This document shows, piece by piece, positions 15,846 to 35,809 of a stretch of 64,000 nucleotides of DNA. Within the stretch, counting starts at the first letter, position 1; each line of letters begins with the position of its first letter. Position numbers and translations under genes: made by a program. Source of the DNA: an uncultured Chloroflexia bacterium (GTDB taxonomy: Bacteria > Chloroflexota > Anaerolineae > JAAYZQ01); assembly GCA_963700285.1 (NCBI GenBank), contig CAVOXA010000010.1:1760001-1824000 (forward strand), in the 5' to 3' direction. The notes under the pieces were generated by a model. The model worked only from the letters and a program-made list of their open reading frames with translations, searched no databases and was not told where the DNA came from.

Positions 15846-15918
15846 GCCCCCATCGTCTAGTGGCCTAGGACACCGCCCTTTCAAGGCGGCGACAGGGATT
15901 CGAATTCCCTTGGGGGCA
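15846..15918 (+). tRNA. tRNA-Glu (anticodon TTC), CCA not encoded
   Basis: Acceptor GCCCCCA/TGGGGGC, anticodon stem CCGCC/GGCGG with loop CTTTCAA, T arm AGGGA-TTCGAAT-TCCCT. Confidence 0.97.
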
Positions 15919-16007
15919 TACCTGTGATTTGTACCAGGGAGGAAACCTGTGAAAAACACCAGGGTTTCCTCTCAAGGTTTGGGGTCAAACGGATGGGTGT
16001 CAAGGTT

Positions 16008-16205
16008 ATGGGCATCAAAGAAATCGAAAAGGCCATCGTTCAACTGCCAGCCAAAGATCTGGACAAGCTGGCAGGCTGGCTCGAGGATTACCGTGCCCAG
16101 ATGTGGGACAAGCAGATCGAAGAAGATCTCGAAGCAGGACGCCTGTATGCCTTGCTTGCCGAGGTCGATGAGGAGTACGAGGCAGGGTTGAGCCAACCGC
16201 TGTGA
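16008..16205 (+). CDS. Putative antitoxin
   Basis: Small acidic ORF (WDKQIEEDLEAGRL) overlapping a downstream toxin by 4 nt. Confidence 0.7.
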   Translation: MGIKEIEKAIVQLPAKDLDKLAGWLEDYRAQMWDKQIEEDLEAGRLYALLAEVDEEYEAGLSQPL

Positions 16206-16465
16206 AGCACCTGACTCTACCCCGTTTCTGGAAGCACTACGGGCAACTGCCAAAAGAAGTACAAGAGCTAGCCGACAAGAGCTTTGAACTCCTCAAGGCC
16301 GATCCCTACCATCCCTCGCTGCATTTCAAGAAGATAGGTGGGGCAAAGCAGTTGTGGTCAGCGCGCGTTGGCGCCCACTACCGAGTTCTGGGTGTGCAGA
16401 AGCCAGAGGGCATCGTGTGGTTCTGGATCGGCACCCACGCCGACTACGATAGGATACTGTCGTGA
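16202..16465 (+). CDS. RelE/ParE-superfamily toxin
   Basis: DPYHPSLHFKK...WSARVGAHYR...WFWIGTHADYD. Confidence 0.8.
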   Translation: MKHLTLPRFWKHYGQLPKEVQELADKSFELLKADPYHPSLHFKKIGGAKQLWSARVGAHYRVLGVQKPEGIVWFWIGTHADYDRILS

Positions 16466-16540
16466 TGGTTCGAGTGCTCTCCAGCTTGTGTAATGCTCAA
16501 GCGGAAGGTCATCTCGACTTAGGTTCTCGACAAGCTCTCA

Positions 16541-16584
16541 GCCCCGCAAGGGTGGCGACATGGCGTGCGTTCGAGGTCCCTTGG
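16541..16584 (+). repeat. Site R1, left part (split by IS110; remainder 18219-18223)
   Basis: GCCCCGCAAGGGTGGCGACATGGCGTGCGTTCGAGGTCCCTTGG. Confidence 0.9.
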
Positions 16585-16744
16585 ACACGCTTTGTCAAGT
16601 CCCGCAGTGGCCGATGCGCAGGCGGAAACGACGCGGCGCTTTACGATAATTGCACCTCGCTTCAGATACCAATCTTCTCTGGTGAGCCTTTGACTTGCCA
16701 AGTCTTCGAACCCCTACAACGGATTCACGCGTACTTCTGCAGAG

Positions 16745-17959
16745 CTAGGATCTAGGCCGGCGACGCTGAGCACGTTGTTGTATGTGGTAGGACTCGTCGT
16801 AGGCCTTGCCGTCTTGCCACATCTTCCAGATGATGGCCAGCCACCGATTGGCCAGCCGACGGTAGGCATCGGAGTCAGAGCGACAGCGGGGACGGACATC
16901 GCGCCAGTAGGCCAAAGCCCAGCCCGACTGCCGCACGGAGGCCTTGGCGAACTGCTGGGCAATGCGCCGGAACTCACGGTCGCAGCCGCGACGGAAGATG
17001 ACGACCTTGCGCTTGCCACTCTTCTTGGTGACGGGGCAGGTACCGGCCAGGGCCTGAACGCCGGCCGGTGTGGGGAAGCGATCGCGGTGGTCACCGAACT
17101 TGGCCAGCAGCCCAGGAGCCAGGAGCTCGCCGGCACCAGGCAGGGAATCGAAGATGAAGGCATCGGGGTGTTGGGAGAAGAGCTGAGCCAGGGAAGAGAG
17201 GGCTTCCGTGCGACGGAGTACCTGAGGCAGGAGCAGTTCGGCCAAGATGCGGATCTGGTCACGATAGGCTGCCACCGCGATAGGGTTGGCTTCTGGGGCG
17301 GGATCCATCAAGTGAGCGTAACGTCGCGAGATGAGGTCCGCCCGGCCATAACGATGTTCTCGACAGAAAGCCTCAAAAGCAGCTCGAGTCAAGCCTTGGG
17401 CTTCCTGGGCTGTGGGATAGGCCATGAGGAAGTGGAGGTTGATCTGGGCGGTGAGTTTCCCGAATAGGCCCAGAGCTTGGGGATAGACGCGAAACAGGAC
17501 GGCCCGGAGTTGGTTGCTCTGGCGCTGGATGGAGCGGCGCAGGAGGTCGATGAGCCGCACTTGAGCCAAGATCTGTTGGGTCAGAGCAGAGTTGGGTTGC
17601 AGGCGGCGATGGCTGTCCAGGTCGGTGTGGAGGATGCTGGACAGGAGAGCGGCATCGGTGTCATCGGTATGGGCGTCGGTGCTCCGCTGGCGATTGCGGT
17701 AGCCTTTTGTGGCTTGGGGCGGGATCAGATAGACGAGGTAGCCACGGTCGAGTAGGAAATCGACGAGCAAGTTGTAGGCGGTCTCAATGGCGACCAGACA
17801 TTCGCTGGGCGGCACACCCAACTTGCGCCGCTCGTCGTCGAAGCGCTGGAAACCTTCCAGGGTGTGCTTGAATTCGACCTGGCTCACAATGGCGCCTTTG
17901 CTGTTGCGAATGCACAGGTTGTGATGCTGTTCACTCCAGTCAATCCCGAACTTGAACAT
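16745..17959 (-). CDS. IS110 transposase (DEDD recombinase)
   Basis: GIDWSEQHH, VAIET, TDDTDAALL, SLPGAG, CPVTKKSGK; GGAGG RBS before MFKF. Confidence 0.93.
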   Translation of the reverse strand: MFKFGIDWSEQHHNLCIRNSKGAIVSQVEFKHTLEGFQRFDDERRKLGVPPSECLVAIETAYNLLVDFLLDRGYLVYLIPPQATKGYRNRQRSTDAHTDDTDAALLSSILHTDLDSHRRLQPNSALTQQILAQVRLIDLLRRSIQRQSNQLRAVLFRVYPQALGLFGKLTAQINLHFLMAYPTAQEAQGLTRAAFEAFCREHRYGRADLISRRYAHLMDPAPEANPIAVAAYRDQIRILAELLLPQVLRRTEALSSLAQLFSQHPDAFIFDSLPGAGELLAPGLLAKFGDHRDRFPTPAGVQALAGTCPVTKKSGKRKVVIFRRGCDREFRRIAQQFAKASVRQSGWALAYWRDVRPRCRSDSDAYRRLANRWLAIIWKMWQDGKAYDESYHIQQRAQRRRPRS

Positions 17960-17994
17960 AGAACGCCTCCTTTGGGTTCTTGTGCCCATCGGAG

Positions 17995-18185
17995 TATGCG
18001 GACTACCGTGTTCCTATTATGGCGCTCGTAGCGCAGCACGCTTTCGACAGTGCCATCCGGCTAGCCCGGGGGGACCATCCAAGGGTGGCGCTCGCGGCGC
18101 TGGGGGCACGCGGTCCTCTGATCCCGGGCGAGTCTCCGATGGGGTCAGCCTGGCAAGTGGCTGCTCACCGCTTGTAGTCTACCCC
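17995..18185 (-). ncRNA. Predicted IS110 bridge RNA, copy 1 (boundaries approximate)
   Basis: Two internal loops with guides matching target (18079-85, 18102-08) and donor (18013-19, 18037-44). Confidence 0.8.
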
Positions 18186-18251
18186 ATCGGTTGACTCCAC
18201 ACAAGTATAGCTAATAGGGGGCATGTGTCGCCACTTGCCATAATGTGGGCG

Positions 18252-18297
18252 ATAGAGAGGGACCGCTTCAAGAGTGCCTGAAGCGGTCCCTCTCTAT
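18252..18297 (+). terminator. Long hairpin after R1
   Basis: ATAGAGAGGGACCGCTTCA / TGAAGCGGTCCCTCTCTAT. Confidence 0.7.
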
Positions 18298-18863
18298 TGT
18301 TGTAGAAAAACACAGAAATCGTCGGATTAGGGATACAAGAAAGCCGAGATGAACCCCAGATGAACAGGCAGGCGACCAGAGTCATCACTTTGCCAGACAA
18401 TCCGGCAGTCAGGCAGCTGAGCGAGATGGCGTGCCCCGAAGAGTGTCGAATCACCAGTTGCCAATGCAACCGCAATGTCAAACATGGGCCGAATGGGCTT
18501 GTTTCTTGACGTGTGAGCCTAATCAGCCAAGATACTTCAAATCCGAACCTTCGTGCCGTTGACCGGAGAGCCATGTACGAGGATCGATGGTTCCAGTAGT
18601 CCTACTACGAGGCGGACGGTCCAGGATTTGTTGGGGTGTGAGCGAAACTGATTCGAGATGGCGGAAGGGGCAGAAGCGCACCAACCCTCCCACCATCTCA
18701 TGAGGGGACCCCCTCTCAGTGCATCATGGCCGGCTTATTGTCGAAGGTTCCGCCAACTCCCCATCACGGCGGGATGGGGAGGTCGATGGCCCACTGCCAG
18801 TGCACCGGCCCGGCCACGGGTGTAGGGAATATGTCGTTAGGCTGCCCGTCGCAGTGTTGACAG

Positions 18864-19667
18864 CTACGGGGTAGCATCCCCGTACCCCAGGTCCCGAAGA
18901 AGGTCGGCAATGATGGCGTCACCCGTGGCATTGGTGTGTATGCCGTCTTCAAGGTAGCCTTCTGGATCTTGATTACCATCTGGACCATTGAACGCCGTAT
19001 AGACAGGCACCACGAGAGTACCATACTCGACTGCAACCTGGTGAACGATGGAGTTCACTCCTTCAACGCAGGTCTTCTTGTCCTCGAAGAAACCCAGTTC
19101 CTTCTGATGCTCGAACTGGAAGTGATAGTCCTCAAAGAGGTGGATGATCGTGTCGTTGGTTCCTCGCAGAGCCAGGATCTCGGCGACAATGGCGCCCAGG
19201 TCCCTGTCCATCGCCTCCAATAGGCGATCGCAGCTCAGACCTTTGCTGGTGTATGCGCTTTTAGCTCTCATGCCCCCAGTCCACACCGTTATGACCTCGG
19301 CCTCACGCACCAATGCCCGCAGCTTGTCGTCTTTTCGCAGATTGGCCAGCAGCGCATCGCTGTCCTGCCCACCCTCATGTTCGTAGTGCAGGTTGACTTT
19401 GATGTCGAGGTCATTCTCGATGTGGTCGGCATACATTCCTGGCCACTGACCCATCCCAGTCCTAGAGTCCCCAAACACGACGAGGTCCCATTCGGTGACC
19501 GATTCGGTGACAGTCACCATGGGCGTCACCGTTGGGGCAGGAACAGATGTAGCAGTAGGTGGGATCTGGGTGGGGATGGGAGTAGGTTGGCCAGTCCCGC
19601 ATGCGGCCAAAAGCACCGAGACGATTGTCAGGCCAATCAGTAGCGGAAACATCTTCTTGTAGTACAT
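18864..19667 (-). CDS. SGNH/GDSL hydrolase lipoprotein
   Basis: Lipobox LAAC, Pro/Thr linker, VVFGDS, DGIHTN. Confidence 0.85.
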   Translation of the reverse strand: MYYKKMFPLLIGLTIVSVLLAACGTGQPTPIPTQIPPTATSVPAPTVTPMVTVTESVTEWDLVVFGDSRTGMGQWPGMYADHIENDLDIKVNLHYEHEGGQDSDALLANLRKDDKLRALVREAEVITVWTGGMRAKSAYTSKGLSCDRLLEAMDRDLGAIVAEILALRGTNDTIIHLFEDYHFQFEHQKELGFFEDKKTCVEGVNSIVHQVAVEYGTLVVPVYTAFNGPDGNQDPEGYLEDGIHTNATGDAIIADLLRDLGYGDATP

Positions 19668-19912
19668 TTCACCCTCCTTGTCATTGTCGGTCTGTCTTTG
19701 TCATCCTCTCCCTCAGCTCCCGCGCCCGTCTGTCGTCGCAGAAACAGAAAGAGATCGTCCAGGTTGGCAAAGCCATGCCGCTCGCCGCTGCCCGGGCGGG
19801 CAAGAGACGCCCGCCAGCCAGCAGCCCCTTCGCCCCGCATCCGCCACAACCTCAGCAGATAGGCCAAGTAGTCGGTTTCCTGTTCTTCCGTGTCCTGTGG
19901 GCCTTCGGTCAT
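19637..19912 (-). CDS. Small hypothetical protein
   Basis: RBS; YLLRLWR..WRASL..GERHGFANLDDLFLFL; divergent from BTAD regulator. Confidence 0.6.
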   Translation of the reverse strand: MTEGPQDTEEQETDYLAYLLRLWRMRGEGAAGWRASLARPGSGERHGFANLDDLFLFLRRQTGAGAEGEDDKDRPTMTRRVKCTTRRCFRY

Positions 19913-19959
19913 CGCTACTGCCCTCTCTTCTGTGGTCAGTCTAACACGCGGGCGCTCGG

Positions 19960-19981
19960 AAAACGATCACAAAACGATCAC
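19960..19981. promoter_or_regulatory. Tandem 11-bp direct repeat, candidate SARP/BTAD operator
   Basis: AAAACGATCAC x2 between divergent genes. Confidence 0.5.
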
Positions 19982-20058
19982 AGACAGCCATGAGATGCCA
20001 GAGTTGAACCCCAGCCCGGTGTGGTGTATAATGGAACCGTTGGCAAGGAGGCTAGGAA

Positions 20059-23000
20059 TTGTCTCTTCTCTCGATCCAGTTATTCGGTACCGTTCGTGTG
20101 ACCCTCAAGGGTGAGCCAGTCACGCGCTTCGAATCGGACAAGGCGCGGGCACTGCTTACCTATCTGGCCGTCGAAGCGGACCGCGCCCACCAACGAGAGA
20201 AGCTGGCCGGTATGCTGTGGCCGGAGTCGACCGAACAGGTGGCCCGCGCCTATCTGCGGCGCCTGTTGGTCAACGTGCGCCAGGCTATCGGCGACTATGA
20301 GGCCGATCCCCCACCTCTACATATCACCCGGCAGACGATCCAGTTCAACGTGCTCAGCGACGCTTGGGTCGACGTCACAGCCTTCCTCAGGCTGGTGCAC
20401 ACCCGGGGACTGACAGACCAAGAGACCGTCCAGCAACTGGAGGACGCGGTCCAGCTCAACCGCGGGGGTTTCCTTGAGGGCTTTTCCCTGGCGGGCAGCC
20501 CGGCCTTCGAGGAGTGGGCGCTACTCAACCGGGAGCATCTCCATCGCCTGGTGATGGACGCCCTGCGCCGTCTGGCTGAGCGATACGAGAGGCAGGGGGA
20601 GTTTGGGCGAGCGTTGCCGCACGCCTGGCGGCAGGTGGAACTCGACCCCTGGCGGGAACAGGCGCACCTGCAGGTGATGCGGCTGCTGGCGCTTAACGGC
20701 CAGCGCGGGGCATCCCTGGCGCAGTATGAAGCCTGCCGCCGGCTACTACGAGACGAACTCGGCGTCCAGCCCTCTGCGGAGACGACCGAGCTCTACGAAG
20801 CCATCCGCAAAGGTGAGTTGATCGCGCGAACCATGGAGCAGCCAGACGACAGAGCATGGTCATCATTCAAGCCGCCTGCCCCGCTGTACAATCTGCCGTC
20901 GCAGGCTACACCCCTTTTTGGTCGGAAAACGGAGTTGGCCGCTCTGGAGGCTCTCCTGGCTGGCGCTGCGGTACGCCTGGTCACGATCACAGGTCCGGGT
21001 GGCATCGGCAAGACGCGGCTGGCGCTGGCAGCCGGTGCCCTCCTCTCCGAAGATCAGCGCGCCGCACGGGCCGGACAGCCTGCCCCCGGTTTCCCTCACG
21101 GCATTGTCTTTGTGCCGCTGGCCCCTTTGGCTCTGCCTGAAGATCTTGCCCCCGCGATCGCCCAGTCCCTTGGACTGACCCTGCAGAGAGGTCAGGACCA
21201 GCTCCTCGACTCCTTGCGTCATAGGCAGCTTCTCCTCATCCTGGACAGCTTTGAGCACCTCTTGACAGGCATTGACTTGCTGATTGACATCATGCGCGCT
21301 GCGCCCGGCGTCAAGCTCCTGGTTACATCCCGCGAGCAGCTTCAGTTGCAGGGCGAGCACCTGTTTCCGATCCAGGGTTTGACGTACCCAGGACAGGACC
21401 CCACGCCATCTGTCCTTGCAGACATGGATGTGGGCGCTTACGCGGCGGCCTACCCGGCCATCAAGCTGTTCGTCGAGACTGTGCACCGCGTCCAGCCAGG
21501 ATTCGAGTTCTGTCCAGACGATGCGGTCGTTGTGACGCGCATCTGCCGCCTCGTGGAGGGCATGCCTCTGGCGCTGGAATTGGCCGCGTCGTGGGCTAAT
21601 AGCCTCTCCCTGGGCGAGATCCTGGCCGAGGCGCGGCAAAGCTTGGACTTCTTGCAGGTGGAATGGCACGATGTTCCCGAGCGGCAGCGCAGCATGCGGG
21701 CCGTGTTTGAGGCCTCGTGGCAGCGGCTCAACGAGGCGGAGCAGGTTGTGTTCTGCCAACTTTCTGTGTTTCGGGGCGGCTTCACGCGGGAAGCCGCCGG
21801 GCAGGTGGTGATAGGGGCCGAAGCTAGCCCCCAGCGACTGGCGACGCTGGTCCGCAAGTCGTTTCTGCAGCACTATCCGGCTGAGTCGCGCTACCAGATC
21901 CGTGAACTGCTGCGCCAATACGGGGCCGAGAAGCTGGCACACGATCCAACTCTTGAGGAAGCGGTGCGTGACGAGCACAGCCGCTATTACTGCGACCTGT
22001 TGGGCCAGCAGGAGATGGGCATCAAGGCTGGAGTGCTGCACGAGATCATGCATGCAATTCAGGGCGACATTGAGAATGTACGTGCTGGCTGCATGTGGGC
22101 TGCTACTGAGGGGCCGCTACAGCGACTCGAGCAAGCAGTCAACCCCCTGGGCTGGTTCTACTACCGGGGATATGCCAGTTTCCAGCAGGGAGAGATCACC
22201 TTCGAGCGCCTTGGCGACGCGTTGGCCGCGGCCGAGACCAGGCCGCCGTCAGGCACACCCCCGCAGCGCACAATGGCCAGAATCCTGGCCTGGCGATCCC
22301 TTTTCCGTACGTATGCATATGACCTGCAGACTAGCGAGCGCCTGCTCGATGAGAGCCGGGCGCAGCTCGATGGCCTAGCTCTGGCTGATGAGGACACCGT
22401 GTTTGAGCGGGCCCTCATCTCCAACCAGTCTGGCTACAACTATCTTTATGCCGACCCCACAAAGGCCCGGCGGCTTTATGCCGAAGCCCTCAAACTCTAT
22501 CGACAGATTGGCCACAAGCTGGGCATGGCCGATGCTCTGTTGGCTGTGGGTCGCGCTGATGCCAGACTGGGTGCGCTGGAGGAGGCGCGAGAAGCCATGA
22601 CCCAGAGCGTCTCTCTATGCCGGGACATGGGCGACCTGGTGAGGGAAAGCGAGTCGGTGGCAGAACTGGGGGCTGTGGTAGCCCTAAGGCAATTCCGGTT
22701 TCAAGAGGCGGAAGACCTGATACGGCAGAGCCTGACTCTCGCGCCAGAGACAAACCGCCACGGCGCCGCCTATGGACTGGCAAGTCTCTGCGGTGTGCAA
22801 CTCCTCACCGGCCAGCTCGTTGAGGCTGAAACCACCGCAACCCAGGGCATCGCTCTCTGGGAGGATCTGGGCTTGCGGGTGTGGATTCTTAGAACTTCGT
22901 TTGTCCTCGCCCGGGCCTGCCTGCATGCTGGAGAGTATCGCGCGGCTCGCGACCAGGCAGAGGCTATGGTTTCGCTGGCCCGCGAAATCAGTTGGGTCCG

Positions 23001-23538
23001 GGGCGTCAGCTACGGGAAGATCGTGCTCGGCGAGGTGGCGCTGGCCAGATCCGCCTTTGCTCAATCATACCAGATCCTGCAAGAAAGCGGGACCGATCTG
23101 AAGCAGGCCTCCGCTGATCCGTGGGACGTAAACCCGTCAGCCTGGCTGGGCCTGGCAGCCCGGGGCCTTGAGCGGGAACCGGAGGCGTGGCGACATCTCA
23201 GCACCGCCCTGGAATGGGCAGGCCGCAATCACCAATTCTATGAACTGATGGTTGCCCTGGCGGGCATTGCGCTCCTGCTGGCCGACGAGGGAGAGGCCGA
23301 ACGAGCGATGGAGCTGTATGCCCTGGCGTCGCGCTATCCCTTCGTGGCGAATTCGCATTGGTTTGAGGACGTTGTCGGACGGCACATCGCAGCCGTCGCC
23401 GCCACCCTACACCCGCAAGCTGCGGCGGCTGCCCAGGAACGCGGCCGGGGCCGGGACCTGGTGGCCACAGTGGGGGAGCTCCTGGTCGAGTTGGGGCGGA
23501 ATGCATCTCCGCCACTTTGCGGCGAATCGCCGGCCTAG
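20059..23538 (+). CDS. AfsR/SARP-like regulator (wHTH-BTAD-ATPase-TPR)
   Basis: KARALLTYLA, REKLAGMLWPE, LDPWREQAH, GPGGIGKTRLA, GMPLALELAA, TPR-like C-terminus. Confidence 0.9.
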   Translation: MSLLSIQLFGTVRVTLKGEPVTRFESDKARALLTYLAVEADRAHQREKLAGMLWPESTEQVARAYLRRLLVNVRQAIGDYEADPPPLHITRQTIQFNVLSDAWVDVTAFLRLVHTRGLTDQETVQQLEDAVQLNRGGFLEGFSLAGSPAFEEWALLNREHLHRLVMDALRRLAERYERQGEFGRALPHAWRQVELDPWREQAHLQVMRLLALNGQRGASLAQYEACRRLLRDELGVQPSAETTELYEAIRKGELIARTMEQPDDRAWSSFKPPAPLYNLPSQATPLFGRKTELAALEALLAGAAVRLVTITGPGGIGKTRLALAAGALLSEDQRAARAGQPAPGFPHGIVFVPLAPLALPEDLAPAIAQSLGLTLQRGQDQLLDSLRHRQLLLILDSFEHLLTGIDLLIDIMRAAPGVKLLVTSREQLQLQGEHLFPIQGLTYPGQDPTPSVLADMDVGAYAAAYPAIKLFVETVHRVQPGFEFCPDDAVVVTRICRLVEGMPLALELAASWANSLSLGEILAEARQSLDFLQVEWHDVPERQRSMRAVFEASWQRLNEAEQVVFCQLSVFRGGFTREAAGQVVIGAEASPQRLATLVRKSFLQHYPAESRYQIRELLRQYGAEKLAHDPTLEEAVRDEHSRYYCDLLGQQEMGIKAGVLHEIMHAIQGDIENVRAGCMWAATEGPLQRLEQAVNPLGWFYYRGYASFQQGEITFERLGDALAAAETRPPSGTPPQRTMARILAWRSLFRTYAYDLQTSERLLDESRAQLDGLALADEDTVFERALISNQSGYNYLYADPTKARRLYAEALKLYRQIGHKLGMADALLAVGRADARLGALEEAREAMTQSVSLCRDMGDLVRESESVAELGAVVALRQFRFQEAEDLIRQSLTLAPETNRHGAAYGLASLCGVQLLTGQLVEAETTATQGIALWEDLGLRVWILRTSFVLARACLHAGEYRAARDQAEAMVSLAREISWVRGVSYGKIVLGEVALARSAFAQSYQILQESGTDLKQASADPWDVNPSAWLGLAARGLEREPEAWRHLSTALEWAGRNHQFYELMVALAGIALLLADEGEAERAMELYALASRYPFVANSHWFEDVVGRHIAAVAATLHPQAAAAAQERGRGRDLVATVGELLVELGRNASPPLCGESPA

Positions 23539-23671
23539 TGTTGGAGGATCGCTGGAGGGAGAGCCTGCACGAGACATCATGTGTCATCTGGCAGGTTCGC
23601 AGCCATCTCTTTGGTCGGTGCAGTCTGAACGTTCTCGTCAGCTGTGGTACATCTGGCTCAAGAGAGTTCAA

Positions 23672-23720
23672 GCCCCGCAAGGGTGGCGACATGGCGTGCG
23701 TTCGAGGTCCCTTGGGGGCA
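23672..23720 (+). repeat. Site R2 (intact, 49 bp)
   Basis: GCCCCGCAAGGGTGGCGACATGGCGTGCGTTCGAGGTCCCTTGGGGGCA. Confidence 0.92.
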
Positions 23721-23995
23721 TTTTGGTCGCCAGTTAGGACGACATAATAGGAGGAAGAGGTCGGACTCAGGACTTGGGTGCGACCTTTTTCGATCATGGT
23801 TAAGTTCGTCTGATGACGGCCGGAGCTATCCAATGCGCCGGGAGGAATAATGTTGCTTGTCTCGCCGAAGCCTAGTTGAGCATCACAATACGCGCTCATT
23901 ACTTGACCTAAAGAGGATTGTCATCTATACTAGCTCTTGAGGGCACTCGAGTAGGAATACGGACAGATTACCGTTATGCCAAGGAGACGACCCGC

Positions 23996-24628
23996 ATGAA
24001 TCAAATGCCATTCTGCCGCATCGGTGTCTTCTATGACGGTTCGTACTTTAACTATGCACAGAGATACTTCTATTTCCAGCGCAAGCTGGGCTGGCTGGGT
24101 TTCCGACCCTTCCACACTCTCATTGAGAGCTATGTCCGCGCCAAGGAGCAGGGCTACAGCAATTACCGAGTCGTCTATGCTTCTTGGTTTCAGGGGCTAT
24201 TTCCGAGTGGTGGTGCCACCGAGCAGCAACTGAGGTTTGACCGCAACCTAAACCACGATCTGCTGCATGCCGGCATTATGCCCATGTACTTGCCAGTCTC
24301 ACAATCAGGGCAAGCAGAAAAGGGGACTGATGTGGCCTTGGCAATTGACGCACTTCAAATCGGGCTGGAAGACAAGATTGATATAGCGGTGCTTGTCAGC
24401 GGTGATGGAGATCTTGTTCCACTGGTACGAGCGCTCATGAAACAGGGCATCAGAGTGATGGCAGCCTACTTCGATTATGAAGAGGGAGAACACAAAAGCT
24501 TCATCAATGAGCGCCTACTTTCTGTCTGCAACTACGATCTGAACGTCAACCAACTTGAGACCGACAAGGATTTCAAGGCAGTCTTCAAGGGTTTGTTCAG
24601 GAAGCCGGAAGCCGACATTGCGACTTGA
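23996..24628 (+). CDS. NYN domain (PIN-like) protein
   Basis: VFYDGSY, EKGTDVALA, LVSGDGDLVP. Confidence 0.88.
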   Translation: MNQMPFCRIGVFYDGSYFNYAQRYFYFQRKLGWLGFRPFHTLIESYVRAKEQGYSNYRVVYASWFQGLFPSGGATEQQLRFDRNLNHDLLHAGIMPMYLPVSQSGQAEKGTDVALAIDALQIGLEDKIDIAVLVSGDGDLVPLVRALMKQGIRVMAAYFDYEEGEHKSFINERLLSVCNYDLNVNQLETDKDFKAVFKGLFRKPEADIAT

Positions 24629-24933
24629 GGAGTGAACCAGCAGACATGTGGCATGTACTACCGCCCGCGGAATATCGGCTCACTGACCATGCTCGGTTCG
24701 AGATGGAACGCCGCGGGATCTCGGAGGCAGAGATTGCACGGGTCCTTTCTGCGCCAGGGCAGTCTGATCTGGTTCGACCAGGGAGGGTGGTCTACCAGTC
24801 GCAAATGGAGTTCGAGGAACCTGGAAGGATCTACCTACTACGCGTCTTTGTGGATATTGATCGGCAGCCAGCGGAGGTCGTCACAGCCTACCGCACGAGC
24901 AAGGTCGAGAAGTACTGGAAGAGTGAACCATGA
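24625..24933 (+). CDS. DUF4258 protein, putative RelE-like toxin
   Basis: LTDHARFEMERRGIS...VVTAY; start uncertain. Confidence 0.75.
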   Translation: MRSEPADMWHVLPPAEYRLTDHARFEMERRGISEAEIARVLSAPGQSDLVRPGRVVYQSQMEFEEPGRIYLLRVFVDIDRQPAEVVTAYRTSKVEKYWKSEP

Positions 24934-25136
24934 GAGTACGATATGACAGCGAGACAGACACCCTGACTGTCATCTTTGCCGATTCGCCTGTGGCCGAGAG
25001 TGACGAGGACAAGCCTGGCACCATTCTGGACTACGATGTGTCGGGCAATCTGGTATCCATAGAGATTCTCGATGCATCACGGAGGGTGGGGCTGCCCACG
25101 CAAATCGAGTATCAAGTGATGCCAGTTGGTGCGTAG
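24930..25136 (+). CDS. DUF2283 protein, putative antitoxin
   Basis: MRVRYDSETDTL...ILDYDVSGNLVSIEILDAS; ATGA overlap. Confidence 0.85.
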   Translation: MRVRYDSETDTLTVIFADSPVAESDEDKPGTILDYDVSGNLVSIEILDASRRVGLPTQIEYQVMPVGA

Positions 25137-25257
25137 CCAAAGGCCATCATAGGCGCGGCGAAGGGATCATCCTGCTGTCTTGGGGCGTCGACCACTGACC
25201 GGCATGGCGCTGCTCAGGTAGATGAGCACCTTGGGTTGGTTTTCCCACAAGCTCTCA

Positions 25258-25301
25258 GTCCCGCAAGGGTGGCGACATGGTGTGCGTTCGAGGTCCCTTG
25301 G
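25258..25301 (+). repeat. Site R3, left part (split by IS110; remainder 26937-26941)
   Basis: GTCCCGCAAGGGTGGCGACATGGTGTGCGTTCGAGGTCCCTTGG. Confidence 0.9.
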
Positions 25302-25461
25302 ACACGCTTTGTCAAGTCCCGCTGTATCCGATGCGCAGGCGCAAACGACGCGGCGATTTACGATAATTGCACCGCGCTTCTGGTACCAACCTTTCCTGGT
25401 GAGCCTTTGACTTGCCAAGTCTTCGAACCCCTACAACGGATTCAGGTACACTTCTGTAGAG

Positions 25462-26676
25462 TTAGGATCTAGGCCGGCGACGCTGAGCACGTTGTTGGAT
25501 GTGGTAAGACTCGTCGTAGGCCTTGCGGTCTTGCCACATCTTCCAGATGATGGCCAGCCAACGATTGGCTAGCCGGCGGTAGGCATCTGAGTCAGAGCGA
25601 CAGCGGGGACGGGCATCGCGCCAGTAAGCCAGTGCCCAGCCCGACTGCCGCACTGAGGCCTTGGCGAACTGCTGGGTAATGCGCCGGAATTCGCGATCGC
25701 AGCCGCGCCGGAAGATGACGACCTTCCGTTTGCCGCTCTGCTTGGTGACGGGGCAGGTGCCGGCCAGGGCCTGAACGCTGGCCGGAGTAGGAAAGCGATC
25801 CCGGTGATCGCCGAACTTAGCCAGGAGCCCTGGTGCCAGCAGCTCCCCTGCACCAGGCAGAGAATCAAAGATGAACGAGTCGGGGTGTTGTGAGAAGAGC
25901 TGGGCCAAGGATGAGCGGGCTTCCGTGCGACGGAGTACCTGGGGCAGGAGCAGTTCCGCCAAGATGCGAACCTGGTCACGATAGGCTGCCACCGCGATGG
26001 GGTTGGCTTCTGGGGCGGGTTCCATCAAGTGAGCATAACGTCGCGAGATGAGATTCGCCCGGCCATACCGATGTTCTCGACAGAAAGCCTCAAAAGCAGC
26101 TCGAGTCAGGCCTTGGGCTTCCTGGGCCGTAGGATAGGCCATGAGGAAGTGGAGGTTGATCTGGGCCGTGAGTTTCCCGAATAGGCCCAGAGCTTGGGGA
26201 TAGATGCGGAACAGGACGGCCCGTAGTTGGTTGGTCTGCCGCTGGATGGAGCGGCGGAGGAGGTCGATGAGCCGCACTTGAGCCAAGATCTGTTGGGTCA
26301 GGGCAGAGTTGGGTTGCAGACGGCGATGGCTATCCAGGTCGGTGTGGAGGATACTGGACAGGAGAGCGGCATCGGTATCATCGGTATGGGCGTCGGTGCT
26401 CCGCTGGCGATTGCGGTAGCCTTTCGTGGCTTGGGGTGGGATGAGATAGACGGGGTAGCCGCGGTCGAGTAAGAAATCGACCAGCAAGTTGTAGGCGGTC
26501 TCGATGGCGACCAAACACTCGCTGGGAGGCACACCCAACTTGCGCCGTTCGTCGTCGAAGCGCTGGAAACCTTCCAGGGTGTGTTTGAATTCGACCTGGC
26601 TCACGATGGCACCTTTGTCATTGCGAATGCACAGGTTATGATGCTGTTCACTCCAGTCAATCCCGAACTTGAACAT
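25462..26676 (-). CDS. IS110 transposase (DEDD recombinase)
   Basis: Near-identical to copy 1 protein. Confidence 0.93.
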   Translation of the reverse strand: MFKFGIDWSEQHHNLCIRNDKGAIVSQVEFKHTLEGFQRFDDERRKLGVPPSECLVAIETAYNLLVDFLLDRGYPVYLIPPQATKGYRNRQRSTDAHTDDTDAALLSSILHTDLDSHRRLQPNSALTQQILAQVRLIDLLRRSIQRQTNQLRAVLFRIYPQALGLFGKLTAQINLHFLMAYPTAQEAQGLTRAAFEAFCREHRYGRANLISRRYAHLMEPAPEANPIAVAAYRDQVRILAELLLPQVLRRTEARSSLAQLFSQHPDSFIFDSLPGAGELLAPGLLAKFGDHRDRFPTPASVQALAGTCPVTKQSGKRKVVIFRRGCDREFRRITQQFAKASVRQSGWALAYWRDARPRCRSDSDAYRRLANRWLAIIWKMWQDRKAYDESYHIQQRAQRRRPRS

Positions 26677-26712
26677 TGAACGCCTCCTTCGGGTTCTTTG
26701 TGCCCATCGGAG

Positions 26713-26903
26713 CATGCGGACCACCGTGTTCCTATTATGGCGCTCGTAGCGCAGCACGCTTTCGACAGTGCCGTCCGGCTAGCCCGGGGGGACCATCCAA
26801 GGGTGGCGCTCGCGGCGCTGGGGGCACGCGGTCCTCTGATCCCGGGCGAGTCTCCGATGGGGTCAGCCTGGCAAGTGGCTGCTCACCGCTTCCAGTCTAC
26901 CCC
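26713..26903 (-). ncRNA. Predicted IS110 bridge RNA, copy 2 (boundaries approximate)
   Basis: Guides at 26731-37, 26755-62, 26797-803, 26820-26 identical to copy 1. Confidence 0.8.
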
Positions 26904-26975
26904 ATCGGTTGACTCCATACAAGTATAGCTAATAGGGGGCATAGCGAGTTATCGATAAATCGATCTCAGTAGCAG

Positions 26976-27004
26976 AGGACCGGCTCAGATGGCCGGTCCT
27001 TTTG
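26976..27004 (+). terminator. Intrinsic terminator after R3
   Basis: AGGACCGGC/GCCGGTCCT followed by TTTT. Confidence 0.75.
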
Positions 27005-27124
27005 TTCCCAAGGCCCGCAACACCGCTGCCCGATCTGGACAAATCTTGGTTTCTAGGCGATAATGTGTGCATATGGTTCAGGATTTTTGTGTTTTTTGCA
27101 CACATGAGGAACACCTCTGAAGAG

Positions 27125-27706
27125 ATGCCAGACCATAATGCACTATACCAAACTGCCGAGCAGCAGGCAGGGTACTTTACTGCGGCACAGGCCAGGAAGG
27201 CCGGCTTCAGTTCGTCGTTGCTTTCCTACCACCTGGATACCGGTCGCTTTGCCCGGGTGAGGCCACGCGTTTACCGTCTTGTCCAGTTCCCGGCTTCGCC
27301 CCACGAGGATCTGTACGTGGCCTGGCTGCAAGCCGGCCCCGACGCCGTCATCTCCCACGACAGCGCCCTGGCGCTGTATGATCTTTCGGATCTCCTTCCC
27401 GATCAGATCCACATCACGGTGCCACGGACGGCCTCACGACGGCGACAGGGGCTCCGGCTGCACACCAAGCACCTGGCTCAGGAGGAGGTGACCCGCTACG
27501 AAGGGCTGCCCGTCACCACTGTGCTGCGGACGCTGGTCGATGTTGCTGGCGCCGGTTTGGCCGACGAACAGGTTCAGCAGGCCATCCGGGAGGCCCTACG
27601 CCGCGGGCTGGTGACTCGAGAGAGCCTGCTCCGGCTAGCTGCCTGTCGCAGGATCCGGCTCGGACGACTCATCGAGGAGACACTGCACAAAGGGGAGCAT
27701 CGATGA
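27125..27706 (+). CDS. Type IV TA antitoxin, AbiEi family
   Basis: AEQQAGYFTAAQA, ISHDSALALY, PVTTVLRTLVD. Confidence 0.88.
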   Translation: MPDHNALYQTAEQQAGYFTAAQARKAGFSSSLLSYHLDTGRFARVRPRVYRLVQFPASPHEDLYVAWLQAGPDAVISHDSALALYDLSDLLPDQIHITVPRTASRRRQGLRLHTKHLAQEEVTRYEGLPVTTVLRTLVDVAGAGLADEQVQQAIREALRRGLVTRESLLRLAACRRIRLGRLIEETLHKGEHR

Positions 27707-28590
27707 ACTACGACAGTGGTGCAAGCTTTCGCCGAGCCCTGGAGGATCGACTGCGCTCTCAGAGCCTGCAAACCGGAGCGCCCCTGGTCCGGCTACGCAA
27801 GATGGTCGCCTTTGACCGTTTCCTGGTGCGGCTCGTACAGGACCAGCCCAATGCCTGGGTGCTCAAAGGTGGGCTGGCCCTGCAACTGCGACTTGGAGAG
27901 AGGGCTCGGACGACGAAAGACATCGATGTGCTTCTGCTTACTCCTCATGAGGATGTTCATCAGTCATTGGTCCGCGCCGCCCTGTTGGATCTGGGAGATT
28001 GGTTCCAGTTCCAGGTGGAACGGTCCCCGGCTGAGGTGCCTGCCGAACCGGTCGGCGGAGTGCGCTTTCAGGTGCAGGGCCTGCTCGACAGGCGGCGCTT
28101 CGAGACCTTTCACATAGACGTCGGGTGGGGGGATCGACTGCTTGATACGGTGGAAACCCTGGTCACGCCGGCACTGCTGGCCTTTGCTAACATCCCACCA
28201 ACCGAGGTCCCCAGTTATCCATTGCCGCAGCAGATTGCTGAAAAAGTCCATGCCTACACGCGGCCGCGTGCCACTGGCGAAGGTAGCCGAGTGAAAGACA
28301 TGGTCGACATCCTGTTGATCGCCGAGCTCAGACCAATGCACGGACAGGCTTTGGCCCAGGCACTCCAGGCAACGTTCGACACACGCACAACCCACGCGTT
28401 GCCCTTGCACCTGCCCAATCCGCCATCCACCTGGGCTGCACCCTTTCGCAGGCTCGCCGAGGAAACCGGCCTGGGTTATCAAACGCTCACTGGTGCCAGT
28501 GAAGCTGCCCGGCGTTTCCTCGATCCTGTCCTACGAGGCGAAACATTCGGGCTATGGGATCCAATGACGTGGTCCTGGCAGCCACTGTGA
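27703..28590 (+). CDS. Type IV TA toxin, AbiEii nucleotidyltransferase
   Basis: WVLKGGLAL, RTTKDID, IAEKVHA, SRVKDMVD. Confidence 0.9.
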   Translation: MNYDSGASFRRALEDRLRSQSLQTGAPLVRLRKMVAFDRFLVRLVQDQPNAWVLKGGLALQLRLGERARTTKDIDVLLLTPHEDVHQSLVRAALLDLGDWFQFQVERSPAEVPAEPVGGVRFQVQGLLDRRRFETFHIDVGWGDRLLDTVETLVTPALLAFANIPPTEVPSYPLPQQIAEKVHAYTRPRATGEGSRVKDMVDILLIAELRPMHGQALAQALQATFDTRTTHALPLHLPNPPSTWAAPFRRLAEETGLGYQTLTGASEAARRFLDPVLRGETFGLWDPMTWSWQPL

Positions 28591-28610
28591 TTGACGAGCG
28601 CGATGCGATA

Positions 28611-30029
28611 GAGTATCCCTTTCGGTGGAAATTCACCGAGCGCGTTGGGCAACGTGGAATTCGTGGGTCTCCTGTGCGAGCATGGCATTGATGCCGGTCT
28701 CCGAATGATAGGCATTGGCCGCGCGCGTTCGGCAGCGGAGTCTACGATTGAAGCGTTCCAGGCGACTGGTTGCGCGCAGATGCTTGCGTTCCCAGTTGGG
28801 GAATTCTTGCTCCAGGGCAAAGTAGGTGACGGTCAAGCGGAAGTCGCGACGCAAAGTTGCGATCGCCTGAGGTTGTGTGTCGCGGTGGGTGCGAACGACT
28901 TTGAGATAGCGGCGCAGCATGGTTTGGTAGCGCCGGGCCTCCCATATCTGCCGAAAGTCTTGAAAGACCTTCTTGCGATGTCGTCGGCGCTGCTTGTCAG
29001 AGAGGTTCTCTGGTGTGCAGATCGCCTTGTAGATGTTGCGGAGCTTGTGGAAAAGGCACCGTTGCTGCTCAGCGTCAAACCAGACGGTTTGTAAGGCAGA
29101 ACAGAGTCCCTTGCCACCATCGTGGATGATGAGTTCCAAGCCGTTCTGACCACAGATGCCTTGGGCTTCCAATATCTCGAGGAATTTGACCCACTCTTCA
29201 GCGCTTTCACCTTCGCCGAGCCGCCAGAGAAGGATCTCGCAGCGGTCGCTGTCAGGCCAGACACCCATGGCGATCATGATGGGGCACTTGAATCGCCCCT
29301 TGACCGGTCGTCTGCGGCCTTTGCGGTCACGACGTACCTCGCCGTTGGCGCGGAGGAGGGTCACCCAGATGGCATCCACCTGCAAGATGGGCGGCACGTC
29401 CTCCACCTCGCGGTTGGGATCGAGGTTCTGGAGCTGATGCAGACGATTGTTCAGCGTTCGCAGGGCTAGCGGGCCGATGCGCATCTGTTCCAGCTCCCTG
29501 CGCATCTGTCGCAGGCTGATGGCCAAGGCGCCCCATCGTTGAATCTGGATATCCACATCATCCCAGAGCCGTTGATAGGGGCACAACAAGCCATCGAAGT
29601 CGATGTGAACACTTCCTCCGCATGCACACCGGACACGAGGCAGGTAGATGGCCAAGGGACCCCACCCTGTGAGCAAGTGCCGTTGCCGAAACCCATTGCG
29701 ACTGAAGCGATGGCTGGCTTTCGACCCGCAGCGACAACACTTACCTTCTCGACGCAGGCGTCTTGGCACTTTTTTCCGTCGTCGGTGGTAGGGGCGGCCA
29801 ACAACATGGCAAACAATGGCTACGAGTAGCTCTATGAATCGAAGCTCCATGGTCTGCTGGAGAGTCCCTTCTGCTTCCAGTATTGATTCCTTGAGCAAGT
29901 CTCGGGCGTTGACAAGAGTACAACTTTCGGGTATCTTAACCATGGAGCGGCCTCCTCGTAGCTTGGTTTCAGCAACCTTGGCTTACATGGAGTCCGCTCC
30001 AATGCCAATTTCCACCGAGTTGTATACAC
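28611..30029 (-). mobile_element. IS256-like insertion sequence
   Basis: Imperfect 23-bp TIRs GAGTATCCCTTTCGGTGGAAATT / GTGTATACAACTCGGTGGAAATT; no clear TSD. Confidence 0.7.
28633..29943 (-). CDS. DDE transposase, IS256/mutator-like
   Basis: QVDAIW, IIHDGGKGL, QRCLFHKLRN, TSRLERFNRRLR. Confidence 0.85.
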   Translation of the reverse strand: MVKIPESCTLVNARDLLKESILEAEGTLQQTMELRFIELLVAIVCHVVGRPYHRRRKKVPRRLRREGKCCRCGSKASHRFSRNGFRQRHLLTGWGPLAIYLPRVRCACGGSVHIDFDGLLCPYQRLWDDVDIQIQRWGALAISLRQMRRELEQMRIGPLALRTLNNRLHQLQNLDPNREVEDVPPILQVDAIWVTLLRANGEVRRDRKGRRRPVKGRFKCPIMIAMGVWPDSDRCEILLWRLGEGESAEEWVKFLEILEAQGICGQNGLELIIHDGGKGLCSALQTVWFDAEQQRCLFHKLRNIYKAICTPENLSDKQRRRHRKKVFQDFRQIWEARRYQTMLRRYLKVVRTHRDTQPQAIATLRRDFRLTVTYFALEQEFPNWERKHLRATSRLERFNRRLRCRTRAANAYHSETGINAMLAQETHEFHVAQRAR

Positions 30030-30140
30030 TACCCTCACGCTAACGTGTTTGCTCTCACTGCGAATCTGTGCTATACTGTGGCCGATATCAAGAATCGCGC
30101 CTCCAAGAAAAGATTCCGTGACAGGTTTTTGGTAAGTATC

Positions 30141-30167
30141 CCCTTGGGGGCACACATGTCGCCACTT
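30141..30167 (+). repeat. Site R4: core plus inverted right arm, no left arm
   Basis: CCCTTGGGGGCA-CA-CATGTCGCCACTT. Confidence 0.75.
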
Positions 30168-30184
30168 TATGTAACTATGGCAAC

Positions 30185-30225
30185 CAAGAGGGATCGATTC
30201 CAGTACCAGGAATCGATCCCTCTTG
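30185..30225 (+). terminator. Long hairpin after R4
   Basis: CAAGAGGGATCGATTCC / GGAATCGATCCCTCTTG. Confidence 0.7.
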
Positions 30226-30505
30226 TGACTTGAGACCCAAGGCGCAGTCATTGACCAACATAGAAAATGACCTATATCAGCGGAAAACAGCTATTCTGAT
30301 CCCCAGACATTCAGCAGAATACGTTGCTGTCTTCGACTCGTCAACCTAGCCAACGGCAAGGCGGTTTGGCGACACTGTGTGCCACGAAGAAGACTCGAAT
30401 CAATCATGTCGCCATCGCAGCCGCAACCTCGAGCAGAGGCCGAATGGGCCGGTATCTTGATGGATGAGCATGTTTGGCCAGGACAGCTCTCCTTGCTGCT
30501 CCGCA

Positions 30506-30551
30506 ACCCTGCAGTGCTGGCGCCATGGCGTGCGTTCGAGATCCCTGGGCA
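30506..30551 (+). repeat. Site R5 (degenerate)
   Basis: ACCCTGCAGTGCTGGCGCCATGGCGTGCGTTCGAGATCCCTGGGCA. Confidence 0.7.
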
Positions 30552-30782
30552 CCTGGTACCTATACCAGGGTGGAGACTTGGACTTCTTACAGGGGGTAAG
30601 ACTGCGAGAACAAACAGGGCAGAGGCATGGACATTTCACAGAAGGTAGATCTGTGAGAACTGCCAGAGCATCTCGTCAATCGCCATAGATCCCCTGGCAG
30701 TTGGTACCTTGCCTTGCTGGACCTCCAGCAAGGCAAGGTCTATTCTCGCTATTGATGCCTCTGGGCCCCTCACCCAGATTGA

Positions 30783-31976
30783 CTAGCCTCCAGATACACC
30801 CAGCAGATGCCGGGCAAGGGCGTGGTACGCCGGTAACGATGTGGGATCGTTGGCCGCATTGCCGGCCACCGGATGCGACGCAAACCGCACAATGACCATT
30901 TCGGCCTTGGGGTCGATGTATAGGGCCTGGCCGTGCACACCCCGTGCGCCGAACGCGCCGTGCTCGTTGTGCGTGACCCACCACATGTTGCGGTAACTCC
31001 ATCCTTCCAGCAGGCTGTAACCGGCCTTGGCGAAGGCGTCCCGGTCACCGCCGCGCTGGATGTCGTCGACGGCGGCCGAGGGCACGATCTGCTGCCCATT
31101 GAACGTGCCACCACTGCGGATCATTTCGCCAAAACGCGCCAGGTCGCGCAGGCCCGTGTTTAGACCGCCGCCGGCAAAGGGCGTGCCGATGGAGTCGACG
31201 CTAAAGTATGCGTCCTGCTCGGCGCCGAGTCGGCGCCAGATGCGTTCGGACAGCAACTGGGCGGCCGAGCGCCCTGTAACGCGTGCGATCACCCAGCCCA
31301 GGGCGTCGGTGTTTGCCGTCTTATAGCCAAAGGCTTCGCCGTGGTTGCCCTGCTTTTTGACCGTCTGCAGAAACTCGTAGTAACTGCGTGGCCCAGTATA
31401 GTCCTTTGGCTTGGGCAGCGGGTTGCCCGCGTGCGCATGGGCCCACACTTCCGCGTTGGGGTTGGAGTAGTCCTCGCTGAACTTGATCGCCGTGGTCATA
31501 TCGAGCACCTGGCGCACGGTAGCATCACCAAAGCCAGAGCCGGCCAGTTCGGGCACGTATTCGCTGACAGGCGCCTCGGCGTCGATCTTGCCTTCAGCGA
31601 CCAACATGGCCCCCAGTGTGCCGACGAACGACTTGGTCACCGACATCGCACCGTGCTGGCCATCTTCCTTGAGCACGCCAAAGTAGCACTCATAGACGAT
31701 GCGCCCTTTGTGCAGCACCACGATCCCGTCGGTGTAGTTGGCCGTCAGCGACTGGGCCCAGGTCATTGGCTGCGTGGCGCCGAGGGGGGTGAACTGTAGG
31801 GCGTCAATGTCGGCTCGCAGTTCTCGATCGAGTGGGATGGGCGCCTCCAGCCCCCGTGAGACGTTGACCGTGGGCATCAACTGGCGAAAGTTCGAGACGC
31901 TCCAACGCATGGCGGGGAATCGGAAGTAGCTGCCATCGTCAAAACGCAGCGTGCGATCGGCAGGCGGTGGGGTGCG
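30783..31976 (-). pseudogene. N-terminally truncated class C beta-lactamase-family serine hydrolase (NylB-like)
   Basis: SVTKS (SxxK), FGYKTANT, ARGVHGQ; family-like sequence starts abruptly at PPPADRTLRF. Confidence 0.75.
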
Positions 31977-32186
31977 GTGACCCTGCTGGTCCTCGCCTGT
32001 GGCGGGATTGCGGGCTATGGCGCGAGCGCCGTCGAACACCCCCGCTACTTCTACATACTCGCCTTTGCAGCCATCACTGTGTTTACGCTGTACGTCATTC
32101 TCGACGTGGAATACCTGCGCCATGGCTTTGTCCGTCTCGATCAAGTGAATCAATCGCTGGCCAATCTGGCAGACATGATGAAATGA
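31977..32186 (+). pseudogene. C-terminal fragment of a DUF4239-like membrane protein
   Basis: LYVILDVEYLRHGFVRLD resembles the DUF4239 C-terminus; no N-terminus. Confidence 0.5.
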
Positions 32187-34745: not shown

Positions 34746-34865
34746 GGTTTGGCCCACGTTCATTGTGGGCAAGGACAATGCCAGTTCAGCAACCCTAGCA
34801 CTAGCTAATCAGCACGTTTCATACAGTTTATACTCGGTTTCACATCCCCAGCCTGAGACGCTCAC

Positions 34866-34948
34866 ATGGGACACCATTTTGTCCCGATGGGACACGAAAT
34901 GGGACACCAATCTGCCAAGATGGGACACAAAGGGACACCAACGGACAC
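34866..34948 (+). repeat. Cluster of six GGACAC direct repeats
   Basis: Starts at 34869, 34890, 34902, 34923, 34933, 34943. Confidence 0.75.
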
Positions 34949-35112
34949 CAAAATGATGTCCATTGGTGTTATGGTCAGAGGCCAGTAGAGGGGTCTCTAG
35001 ACGGTTTTTGGGCGCTGAGCGGCCGAAAAACCGGGTCAAGGTCGCAAAAACGGACCCGGAGCCATTTTGCGATTCTCGCTGGTTGTGGTATACTCCTTCC
35101 TACAAGTTTTCA

Positions 35113-35161
35113 GTCCTGCAAGGGTGGCGACATGGTGTGCGTTCGAGGTCCCTTGGGGGCA
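35113..35161 (+). repeat. Site R6 (intact, 49 bp)
   Basis: GTCCTGCAAGGGTGGCGACATGGTGTGCGTTCGAGGTCCCTTGGGGGCA. Confidence 0.92.
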
Positions 35162-35284
35162 TACCTGTGATAAATAACAGGGTGAGAACCTGGGAGATCT
35201 GACAGGAGACAACCCTGCAAGAGGTCCCAGATAGGCCGACCCAGTTGATCGAGGACCGGCTTGCCGTCTGAAGGGTACGGAGGC

Positions 35285-35494
35285 ATGGCAAAGGAAGTAC
35301 TATTCTTGGTCGAAGATGCGGACGAAGGCGGATATACTGCTCGTGCCTTGGGCCACTCTATCTTCACCGAAGCTGATTCATGGGACGAACTGAAGGTAGC
35401 CGTTCGAGACGCCGTGCAGTGCCACTTCGATGAGGGGGAGCAGCCGGACCTGATCCGCCTGCATGCCGTCCGCGAAGAAGTTGTGCCGGCATGA
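35285..35494 (+). CDS. HicB-like antitoxin
   Basis: VEDADEGGYTARALGHSIFTEADSWDELK; ATGA overlap with HicA. Confidence 0.78.
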   Translation: MAKEVLFLVEDADEGGYTARALGHSIFTEADSWDELKVAVRDAVQCHFDEGEQPDLIRLHAVREEVVPA

Positions 35495-35736
35495 GGCTGC
35501 CGCGAGATCTCAGCGGCGACCAACTGGCGGTCCTACTCAGGCGCTACGGCTACGAGGAAACGCGCCAGACAGGCAGTCACATGCGTCTGACCACAACGCA
35601 GGAGGGTGAGCATCACGTTACGATTCCGCGTCACAGTTCACTGCGGGTCGGCACATTGAGTGCCATCCTCAGCGATGTGGCTGAGCATCTGGGCATCCCG
35701 AAACCTACGCTGGTGGAGACGTTGTTCAGCAAGTAA
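35491..35736 (+). CDS. HicA family toxin
   Basis: RQTGSHMRL..HVTIPRH..LRVGTLSAIL. Confidence 0.9.
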   Translation: MRLPRDLSGDQLAVLLRRYGYEETRQTGSHMRLTTTQEGEHHVTIPRHSSLRVGTLSAILSDVAEHLGIPKPTLVETLFSK

Positions 35737-35760
35737 GTGCGTGCCTAGCGCCATAGTGTA

Positions 35761-35809
35761 GCCCAGCAAGGGTGGCGACATGGTGTGCGCTCGAGGTCCC
35801 TTGGGGGCA
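35761..35809 (+). repeat. Site R7 (intact, 49 bp, most distal)
   Basis: GCCCAGCAAGGGTGGCGACATGGTGTGCGCTCGAGGTCCCTTGGGGGCA. Confidence 0.92.

Follow-up and report, generated by a model that had tools for sequence, protein, structure and literature searches.

Organization of the Locus

The window, by which we mean the whole stretch of 64,000 nucleotides analyzed here, carries a tRNA-Glu(UUC) gene and an array of gene cassettes (15846-35809), in which the tRNA is followed by six repeat cores and one degenerate core. Two of the repeat sites are filled by copies of an IS110 element. The host assembly measures 7.05 Mb and is 89% complete. The features are as follows, with positions in the window:

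15846-15918, plus strand: tRNA-Glu(UUC), intact; its 3' end (15907-15918) is the guide-matched sequence
16552-16584, plus strand: repeat site S1, left arm and core, filled by copy 1; right arm at 18219-18234
16583-16584, minus strand: CC core, right junction of copy 1
16585-18216, minus strand: IS110 element copy 1, 1632 bp, forming with one CC core a unit of 1634 bp
16745-17959, minus strand: DEDD/Ser bridge recombinase, 404 aa, intact (PF01548 and PF02371 in Pfam; NF033542 above cut-off)
18217-18218, minus strand: CC core, left junction of copy 1
23683-23720, plus strand: repeat site S2, empty
25269-25301, plus strand: repeat site S3, left arm and core, filled by copy 2
25302-26934, minus strand: IS110 element copy 2, with cores at 25300-25301 and 26935-26936
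30141-30152, plus strand: core of repeat site S4, empty, with a different left arm
35124-35161, plus strand: repeat site S5, empty
35772-35809, plus strand: repeat site S6, the last of the array, empty

The two copies share 93% nucleotide and 96% amino acid identity and have identical guides; neither shows damage to its reading frame, guides or promoter boxes. Each lies in the context TGCCC-CC-element-CC-AAGGG, with the same CC core duplicated, in agreement with the claim of an earlier note on this DNA that both are inserted at an identical core. That note had placed copy 1 at 16583-18223; an element does lie there, but the element proper spans 16585-18216, and position 18223 takes in target flank. 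These are the only close copies in the assembly, which has five more distant IS110-type matches elsewhere.

The boundaries of copy 1 are fixed by natural empty sites in contigs of the public runs X4, X6, and X17, in which 16582 is joined to 18217, 1634 bp are skipped (with two ambiguous letters) and one CC core is retained. The short core at both junctions and the scarless empty site are both features of the IS110 group, as is the longer non-coding left end (257 nt vs 160 nt for the right end). L001, the nearest relative with a name (87%), comes from an Anaerolineae contig, which makes that class a likely one for the host. Viral contigs gave no match for the transposase, the integrase discussed below, the repeat site or the right-end junction motif. 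In the relative L161, a 1730-bp contig consists of one 1639-bp unit with a 91-nt terminal repeat spanning joined right and left ends, and is either a circle or a tandem copy. Among the joints listed for eight runs, as assembled contigs, there was neither an end-to-end joint of the clade described below nor a joint from the tRNA to the right end of the element; the RNA runs were covered as assembled contigs from relatives.

The Recombinase

Five residues of the recombinase, D7, E59, D99, D102, and S314, are invariant in 16 of 16 homologs and align to the catalytic positions of IS621 named in PMC11208158. The protein is remote from those with solved structures: its single sequence gave no phmmer match among them, whereas a profile of 16 sequences finds IS621 and ISCro4 (E about 1e-12), whose solved chains have 328 and 341 residues vs 404 here. 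On the defining features that can be tested in its sequence the element is an IS110-group bridge recombinase, with expression and activity predicted.

Predicted Bridge RNA, Guides and Promoter

The left end is predicted to encode a two-loop non-coding RNA, with four guides that match target and donor. The predicted parts, all on the minus strand, are:

17999-18197, ends approximate: bridge RNA (consensus fold of 16 homologs, pair counts)
18190-18136: 5' hairpin
18129-18064: target module
18060-17999: donor module
18102-18110: left target guide (LTG), CGUGCCCCC, including the CC core (covariation)
18079-18085: right target guide (RTG), CCCUUGG, 7 nt (covariation)
18077-18078: target-loop handshake, AU
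18035-18044: left donor guide (LDG), with AAAGCGUG at 18044-18037; eight matches, then a mismatch and a wobble
18013-18019: right donor guide (RDG), UAAUAGG, 7 nt
18011-18012: donor-loop handshake, AA
18204-18209: -10 box TATACT, in the left end
16593-16598: -35 box TTGACA, in the right end

The guide motifs quoted in the earlier note were all located on the minus strand, and its reading of a bridge RNA with a CC core, its assignment of the guides and the targeting of cassette sites are borne out by covariation, a conserved fold and the natural empty sites. The consensus fold of 16 left ends has a 5' hairpin and two modules, each with an internal loop in which both guide strands are unpaired; target and donor loops carry the same inner hairpin, of 4 bp in the consensus fold. 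Compensatory changes occur in 18 of 42 pairs, a count matched by none of 500 shuffles, the structure having been derived from the alignment on which it was counted. Folding of single sequences is weak (z -1.75 and -2.56) and does not open the loops cleanly, and the Rfam matches were the tRNA and a single chance one below threshold. The match of the donor loop to the ends of the element, also claimed earlier, holds for the eight LDG positions that pair with donor positions -1 to 6, but these are followed by a P7 mismatch and a P8 wobble, so that the core is not cleanly covered by the LDG. When the ends are joined through CC, the two boxes form a TTGACA-17-TATACT promoter, a layout shared by 28 of 29 elements having both ends.

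The handshake bases of IS621 are described in PMC13626964 as forming one pair before strand exchange and three after. By the rule given there and in PMC11208158, the target-loop AU would pair with donor P7/P6 after exchange, and all 12 types have AU or AC in this position, which then fits donor GT. In 10 of the 12 types the donor loop has AA, which departs from the IS621 rule: it faces donor T7, with which it can pair before exchange, and in this clade has no pairing with target CC after exchange. In IS621, recombination is strongly reduced when a donor-loop A stands opposite donor T7 (PMC11208158); either insertion may be damped in this clade or the register may differ.

Two relatives have altered left ends. 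In L026 the donor-binding module is deleted and the target module kept, and L162 has an identical one-base deletion in the right end and the left donor guide.

Guides Covary with Flanking Sequences

Covariation of guides with flanks in homologous IS110 elements, which had been proposed as a check of the bridge-RNA reading, was scored on 53 homologous loci and the two copies in the window (45 table rows; 10 loci dropped by the hit filter), each of the 13 guide types per side being represented once and the core left out of the count; partial loci contribute one side only. The check was passed on both sides. Left guides match their own flanks at 65 of 88 positions (shuffled mean 28.2, maximum 50) and right guides at 57 of 65 (shuffled mean 20.8, maximum 43); the observed match was reached on neither side in 20,000 shuffles. 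Poor matches in this set are those of L047 (1/7 under fixed register) and of L026 on the right (2/5). A held-out set of eight further loci, six of them scorable, gave left and right matches (of 7 and 5) of 7/5, 4/4, 1/1, 7/2, 7/5, and 6/4, that is, at least six of seven on the left in four loci and at least four of five on the right in four loci. The held-out exceptions are the left match of L157 (4/7), the right match of L163 (2/5), and L159, whose guides match its own site at 1/7 and 1/5. The flanks of L159 resemble the targets of L046 and L039, which suggests that it moved in trans, possibly by the RNA of another element.

About 3.3 perfect 12-mers are expected by chance in the host genome; it is the covariation of guides and flanks among homologs that lifts the match of guide to target above chance. 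Close sisters switch guide and flank together, as do L015 and L022 at one RTG base. The donor guides are more conserved, yet they vary with the ends, with exact matches in four of five LDG types and three of five RDG types; donor covariation is weaker than that of the target since donor types are few.

The guide of the window is kept in a clade of 14 of the 36 full-length proteins (support 100/99), whose members are 79-100% identical and have this guide wherever the loop is sequenced. In loci of at least 79% identity, left flanks end in TGCCC in 13 of 14 cases, the remaining one having an extra C, and right flanks start with AAGGG in 17 of 18, the remaining one reaching the end of its contig after 4 nt. 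Distinct flank sequences in the clade number 14 on the left and 13 on the right, and insertion is always at the same base. No homolog was seen to keep its guides in unrelated targets, which the earlier note had named as grounds for giving up its reading; sisters at 76-78% identity have both different guides and different targets. That the guide is kept over about 20% protein divergence, while sisters are often retargeted, is as expected for a renewable safe haven.

The Cassette Array

Two of seven sites in the array are filled, counting the tRNA as a site, and one more perfect 12-mer lies in another contig. The earlier suggestion that the spare copies are the ones occupied is correct in that two are filled and the tRNA is intact, but most repeat sites are empty, including the three with the best wobble-free guide matches. 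The repeats are imperfectly palindromic, with a GTGGCGACA box 16 nt from the center (11 nt in the tRNA) and an inverted box at variable spacing. The cassettes range from 0.65 to about 5.5 kb (the smallest is 650 bp) and often hold toxin-antitoxin pairs; their genes include ParE-like, DUF4258/DUF2283, AbiE, and HicA-type pairs, and genes for an NYN protein, a lipase, a regulator and a serine hydrolase. Of 22 genomes from the host family, 10 have the common left arm, as against 0 of 38 from other families, and in several relatives a cassette arm lies directly after the tRNA.

No recombinase lies inside the array. The assembly, at 89% completeness, contains no large or small serine recombinase, and no integron integrase IntI at cut-off was found in it or beside the array. 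Its tyrosine recombinase matches number seven, and the three strong ones score far below the IntI cut-off. Candidates for the array recombinase were rejected in turn: one match is XerD, another, before rpoC, is a conserved gene with no array motifs close by, and the distribution of a third does not track the repeat sites. The IS110 element itself is ruled out as builder of the array by empty sites without donor sequence. In G015, a tyrosine integrase (L121:4473-5351) lies directly after tRNA-Glu(UUC), as also in L128 (G016), and a 52% relative sits after tRNA-Glu(CUC). The G015 integrase has no match in G000 at E 1e-25 and is therefore a candidate only for an array recombinase acting in trans. 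Since the cassette recombinase was not found, it is from their anatomy that we infer the repeats to be recombination sites.

Several further observations concern the array and its surroundings. Two repeat cores stand head-to-head in a near-perfect palindrome at L082:8520-8600, a junction that suggests that repeat sites can join in inverted orientation. Transposase genes of the IS256-like, IS66-like, and IS630-like types are found within the array or next to it (28633-29943, 32194-34692, and 36595-37137), and a lone degenerate repeat arm with a core lies distant from it on the minus strand (G000:C10:787126). The cassette beside copy 1 starts with a strong hairpin (18251-18298); other cassettes open likewise, and these hairpins are possibly insulating terminators. 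A XerC-like gene before rpoC (L103:3589-4536; G000:C10:1211588-1212532) has matches in 18 of 22 family genomes. Its G000 copy is without the usual Arg and His residues of the motif, and the adjoining rpoC is split across several frames, likely by assembly errors.

A Model of Targeting and Its Alternatives

The 14-mer at the 3' end of tRNA-Glu(UUC) is identical to the pre-insertion target of copy 2. The assembly was found to have one tRNA-Glu(UUC) gene and one tRNA-Glu(CUC) gene, and insertion into the former would cut its acceptor pairs from 7/7 to 4/7, as the earlier note had anticipated in saying that the acceptor stem would be broken. No tRNA is a flank in the loci of the clade or in their rebuilt empty sites. 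Statistically this sparing is weak: for 0 of 17 flanks in the tRNA, p is about 0.07 when the tRNA counts as one of seven sites and 0.008 when it counts as one of four, and the loci are related. The tRNA pattern search is blind to an interrupted tRNA and was left out of this evidence.

We consider it highly probable that the bridge RNA guides the recombinase to the 14-bp sequence of the tRNA-Glu(UUC) 3' end, and that the element occupies the repeated copies of this sequence between cassettes and not the tRNA. The element would leave as a circle joined via one CC core, as the joined ends in a relative suggest, and the joint would form the TTGACA-17-TATACT promoter, which may drive both the RNA and the recombinase. 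The donor loop would then pair with the joint and, judging from covariation, the target loop with (N)(R)TGCCC-CC-AAGGG; by homology to IS621, composite DEDD and Ser sites would swap strands at CC. Insertion would split the repeat site, so that cassette recombination there would be blocked until excision. The tRNA is an equally good sequence match, and it is likely spared through the lethality of insertion: cells in which it is hit are likely lost, because the acceptor stem would be broken.

Alternatively, guide pairing may be real and the sparing of the tRNA due not to lethality but to a second filter, for example a DNA hairpin or a cassette-site protein, as in ISPpu10. Gating by a stem-loop has precedent (10.64898/2026.03.19.712850), and the rebuilt S1 site folds as one long hairpin (-17.6 kcal/mol), the most stable of eight sites. 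However, S3 is filled although it is without the right-hand box and the S1 hairpin and folds differently, and among filled sites in relatives the left arms are of several unrelated kinds and the box is missing from many right arms; we think a second filter unlikely. In another proposal, the copies descend from a few old insertions and have been carried along passively by the cassettes, and guide-directed transposition into these sites has ceased. The 7% divergence of the two copies, a handshake that looks unfavorable and the lack of a clade end-to-end joint among the joints listed for eight runs all point in its direction. We give it a distinctly lower probability than a second filter, given that the 14 left and 13 right distinct flanks meet the element at the same base every time, that both copies retain intact frames, guides and promoter boxes, and that empty versions of the site exist.

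That the matches of loops to flanks arise by chance, or that the protein alone selects the site, is the least probable account by far and is already refuted by covariation. The guides are short and GC-rich, about three such 12-mers are expected per genome, and the homolog L159 mismatches its own flanks; but none of the 20,000 permutations reached the observed match on either side, and guide and flank change jointly in close sisters (L015, L022).

Relation to Known Systems

The element shares with IS621 and ISCro4 (IS622) a DEDD and Ser recombinase and a 2-bp core (PMC11208160, PMC11208158, 10.1101/2025.05.14.653916), and also a long left end, a 5' hairpin and two internal loops each with an inner hairpin (PMC11208160), the order LTG/RTG/LDG/RDG, a promoter across the joint and an AU target-loop handshake. 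It differs from IS621 in its core (CC vs CT), in a natural RTG of which all 7 nt are matched, vs four paired in wild-type IS621, in an LDG that reaches two bases left of P1, in the donor handshake AA, and in its target, a repeat of a tRNA 3' end rather than REP. Five motifs of the element are absent from six of seven supplements of PMC11208160, in their readable parts, and the full-text literature, covered as titles and openings of abstracts, gave no description of an IS110 element aimed at tRNA ends. The bridge-RNA mechanism has been known since 2024 and is unchanged by this element; the kind of target is the unusual part.

The targeting of recombination sites is itself known from IS1111 elements at attC, such as ISKpn4 (PMC11187229). 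That group, too, consists of RNA-guided elements of the IS110 superfamily specialized on the recombination sites of gene-cassette arrays, whereas the sites here are tRNA-end repeats and not attC. In the IS1111 group the RNA lies in the right end, downstream of the gene, and there are sub-terminal inverted repeats (PMC11187229); the element described here has its guide loops upstream and no RNA of that placement. It would be the IS110-group counterpart of IS1111 at attC: its RNA guide fixes it on the 3' end of an essential tRNA gene, while it resides in spare copies of that sequence. ISPpu10 is likewise an IS110 element with a bridge RNA, multi-copy intergenic sites and IS-cargo-IS layouts, but its targets are REP and require a stem-loop, a need that is not evident here (10.64898/2026.03.19.712850).

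The array resembles the ssrA/tRNA island arrays of Dehalococcoides, also Chloroflexota islands between repeats of the 3' end of an essential RNA gene, of which strain VS has 11 ssrA repeats (PMC2764846). In those arrays a recombinase cluster adjoins ssrA (PMC2764846), whereas there is none in the array here, which also differs in having cassettes down to 650 bp and conserved inverted boxes around the repeat. The locus points to a tRNA-Glu cassette array whose recombinase was not found in the assembly (89% complete). A bolder reading, which we regard as doubtful, is that the tRNA-Glu repeat array is an undescribed cassette system of the whole family, and that the IS110 clade, with its CC core and a handshake unlike that of IS621, is its dedicated parasite and part-time shuffler. 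If this were true, two copies in the same orientation could excise with the intervening cassettes as a circle of roughly 10 kb and reinsert at any empty repeat; an array of cassettes lacking its own recombinase would then be reshuffled by an RNA-guided one.

With this element the bridge recombinases gain a distant and compact clade whose natural core is CC and whose 7-nt right guide is matched in full. The homologs provide about a dozen natural retargetings, which should be useful for the mining of orthologues and for testing the generality of the IS621 handshake rule.
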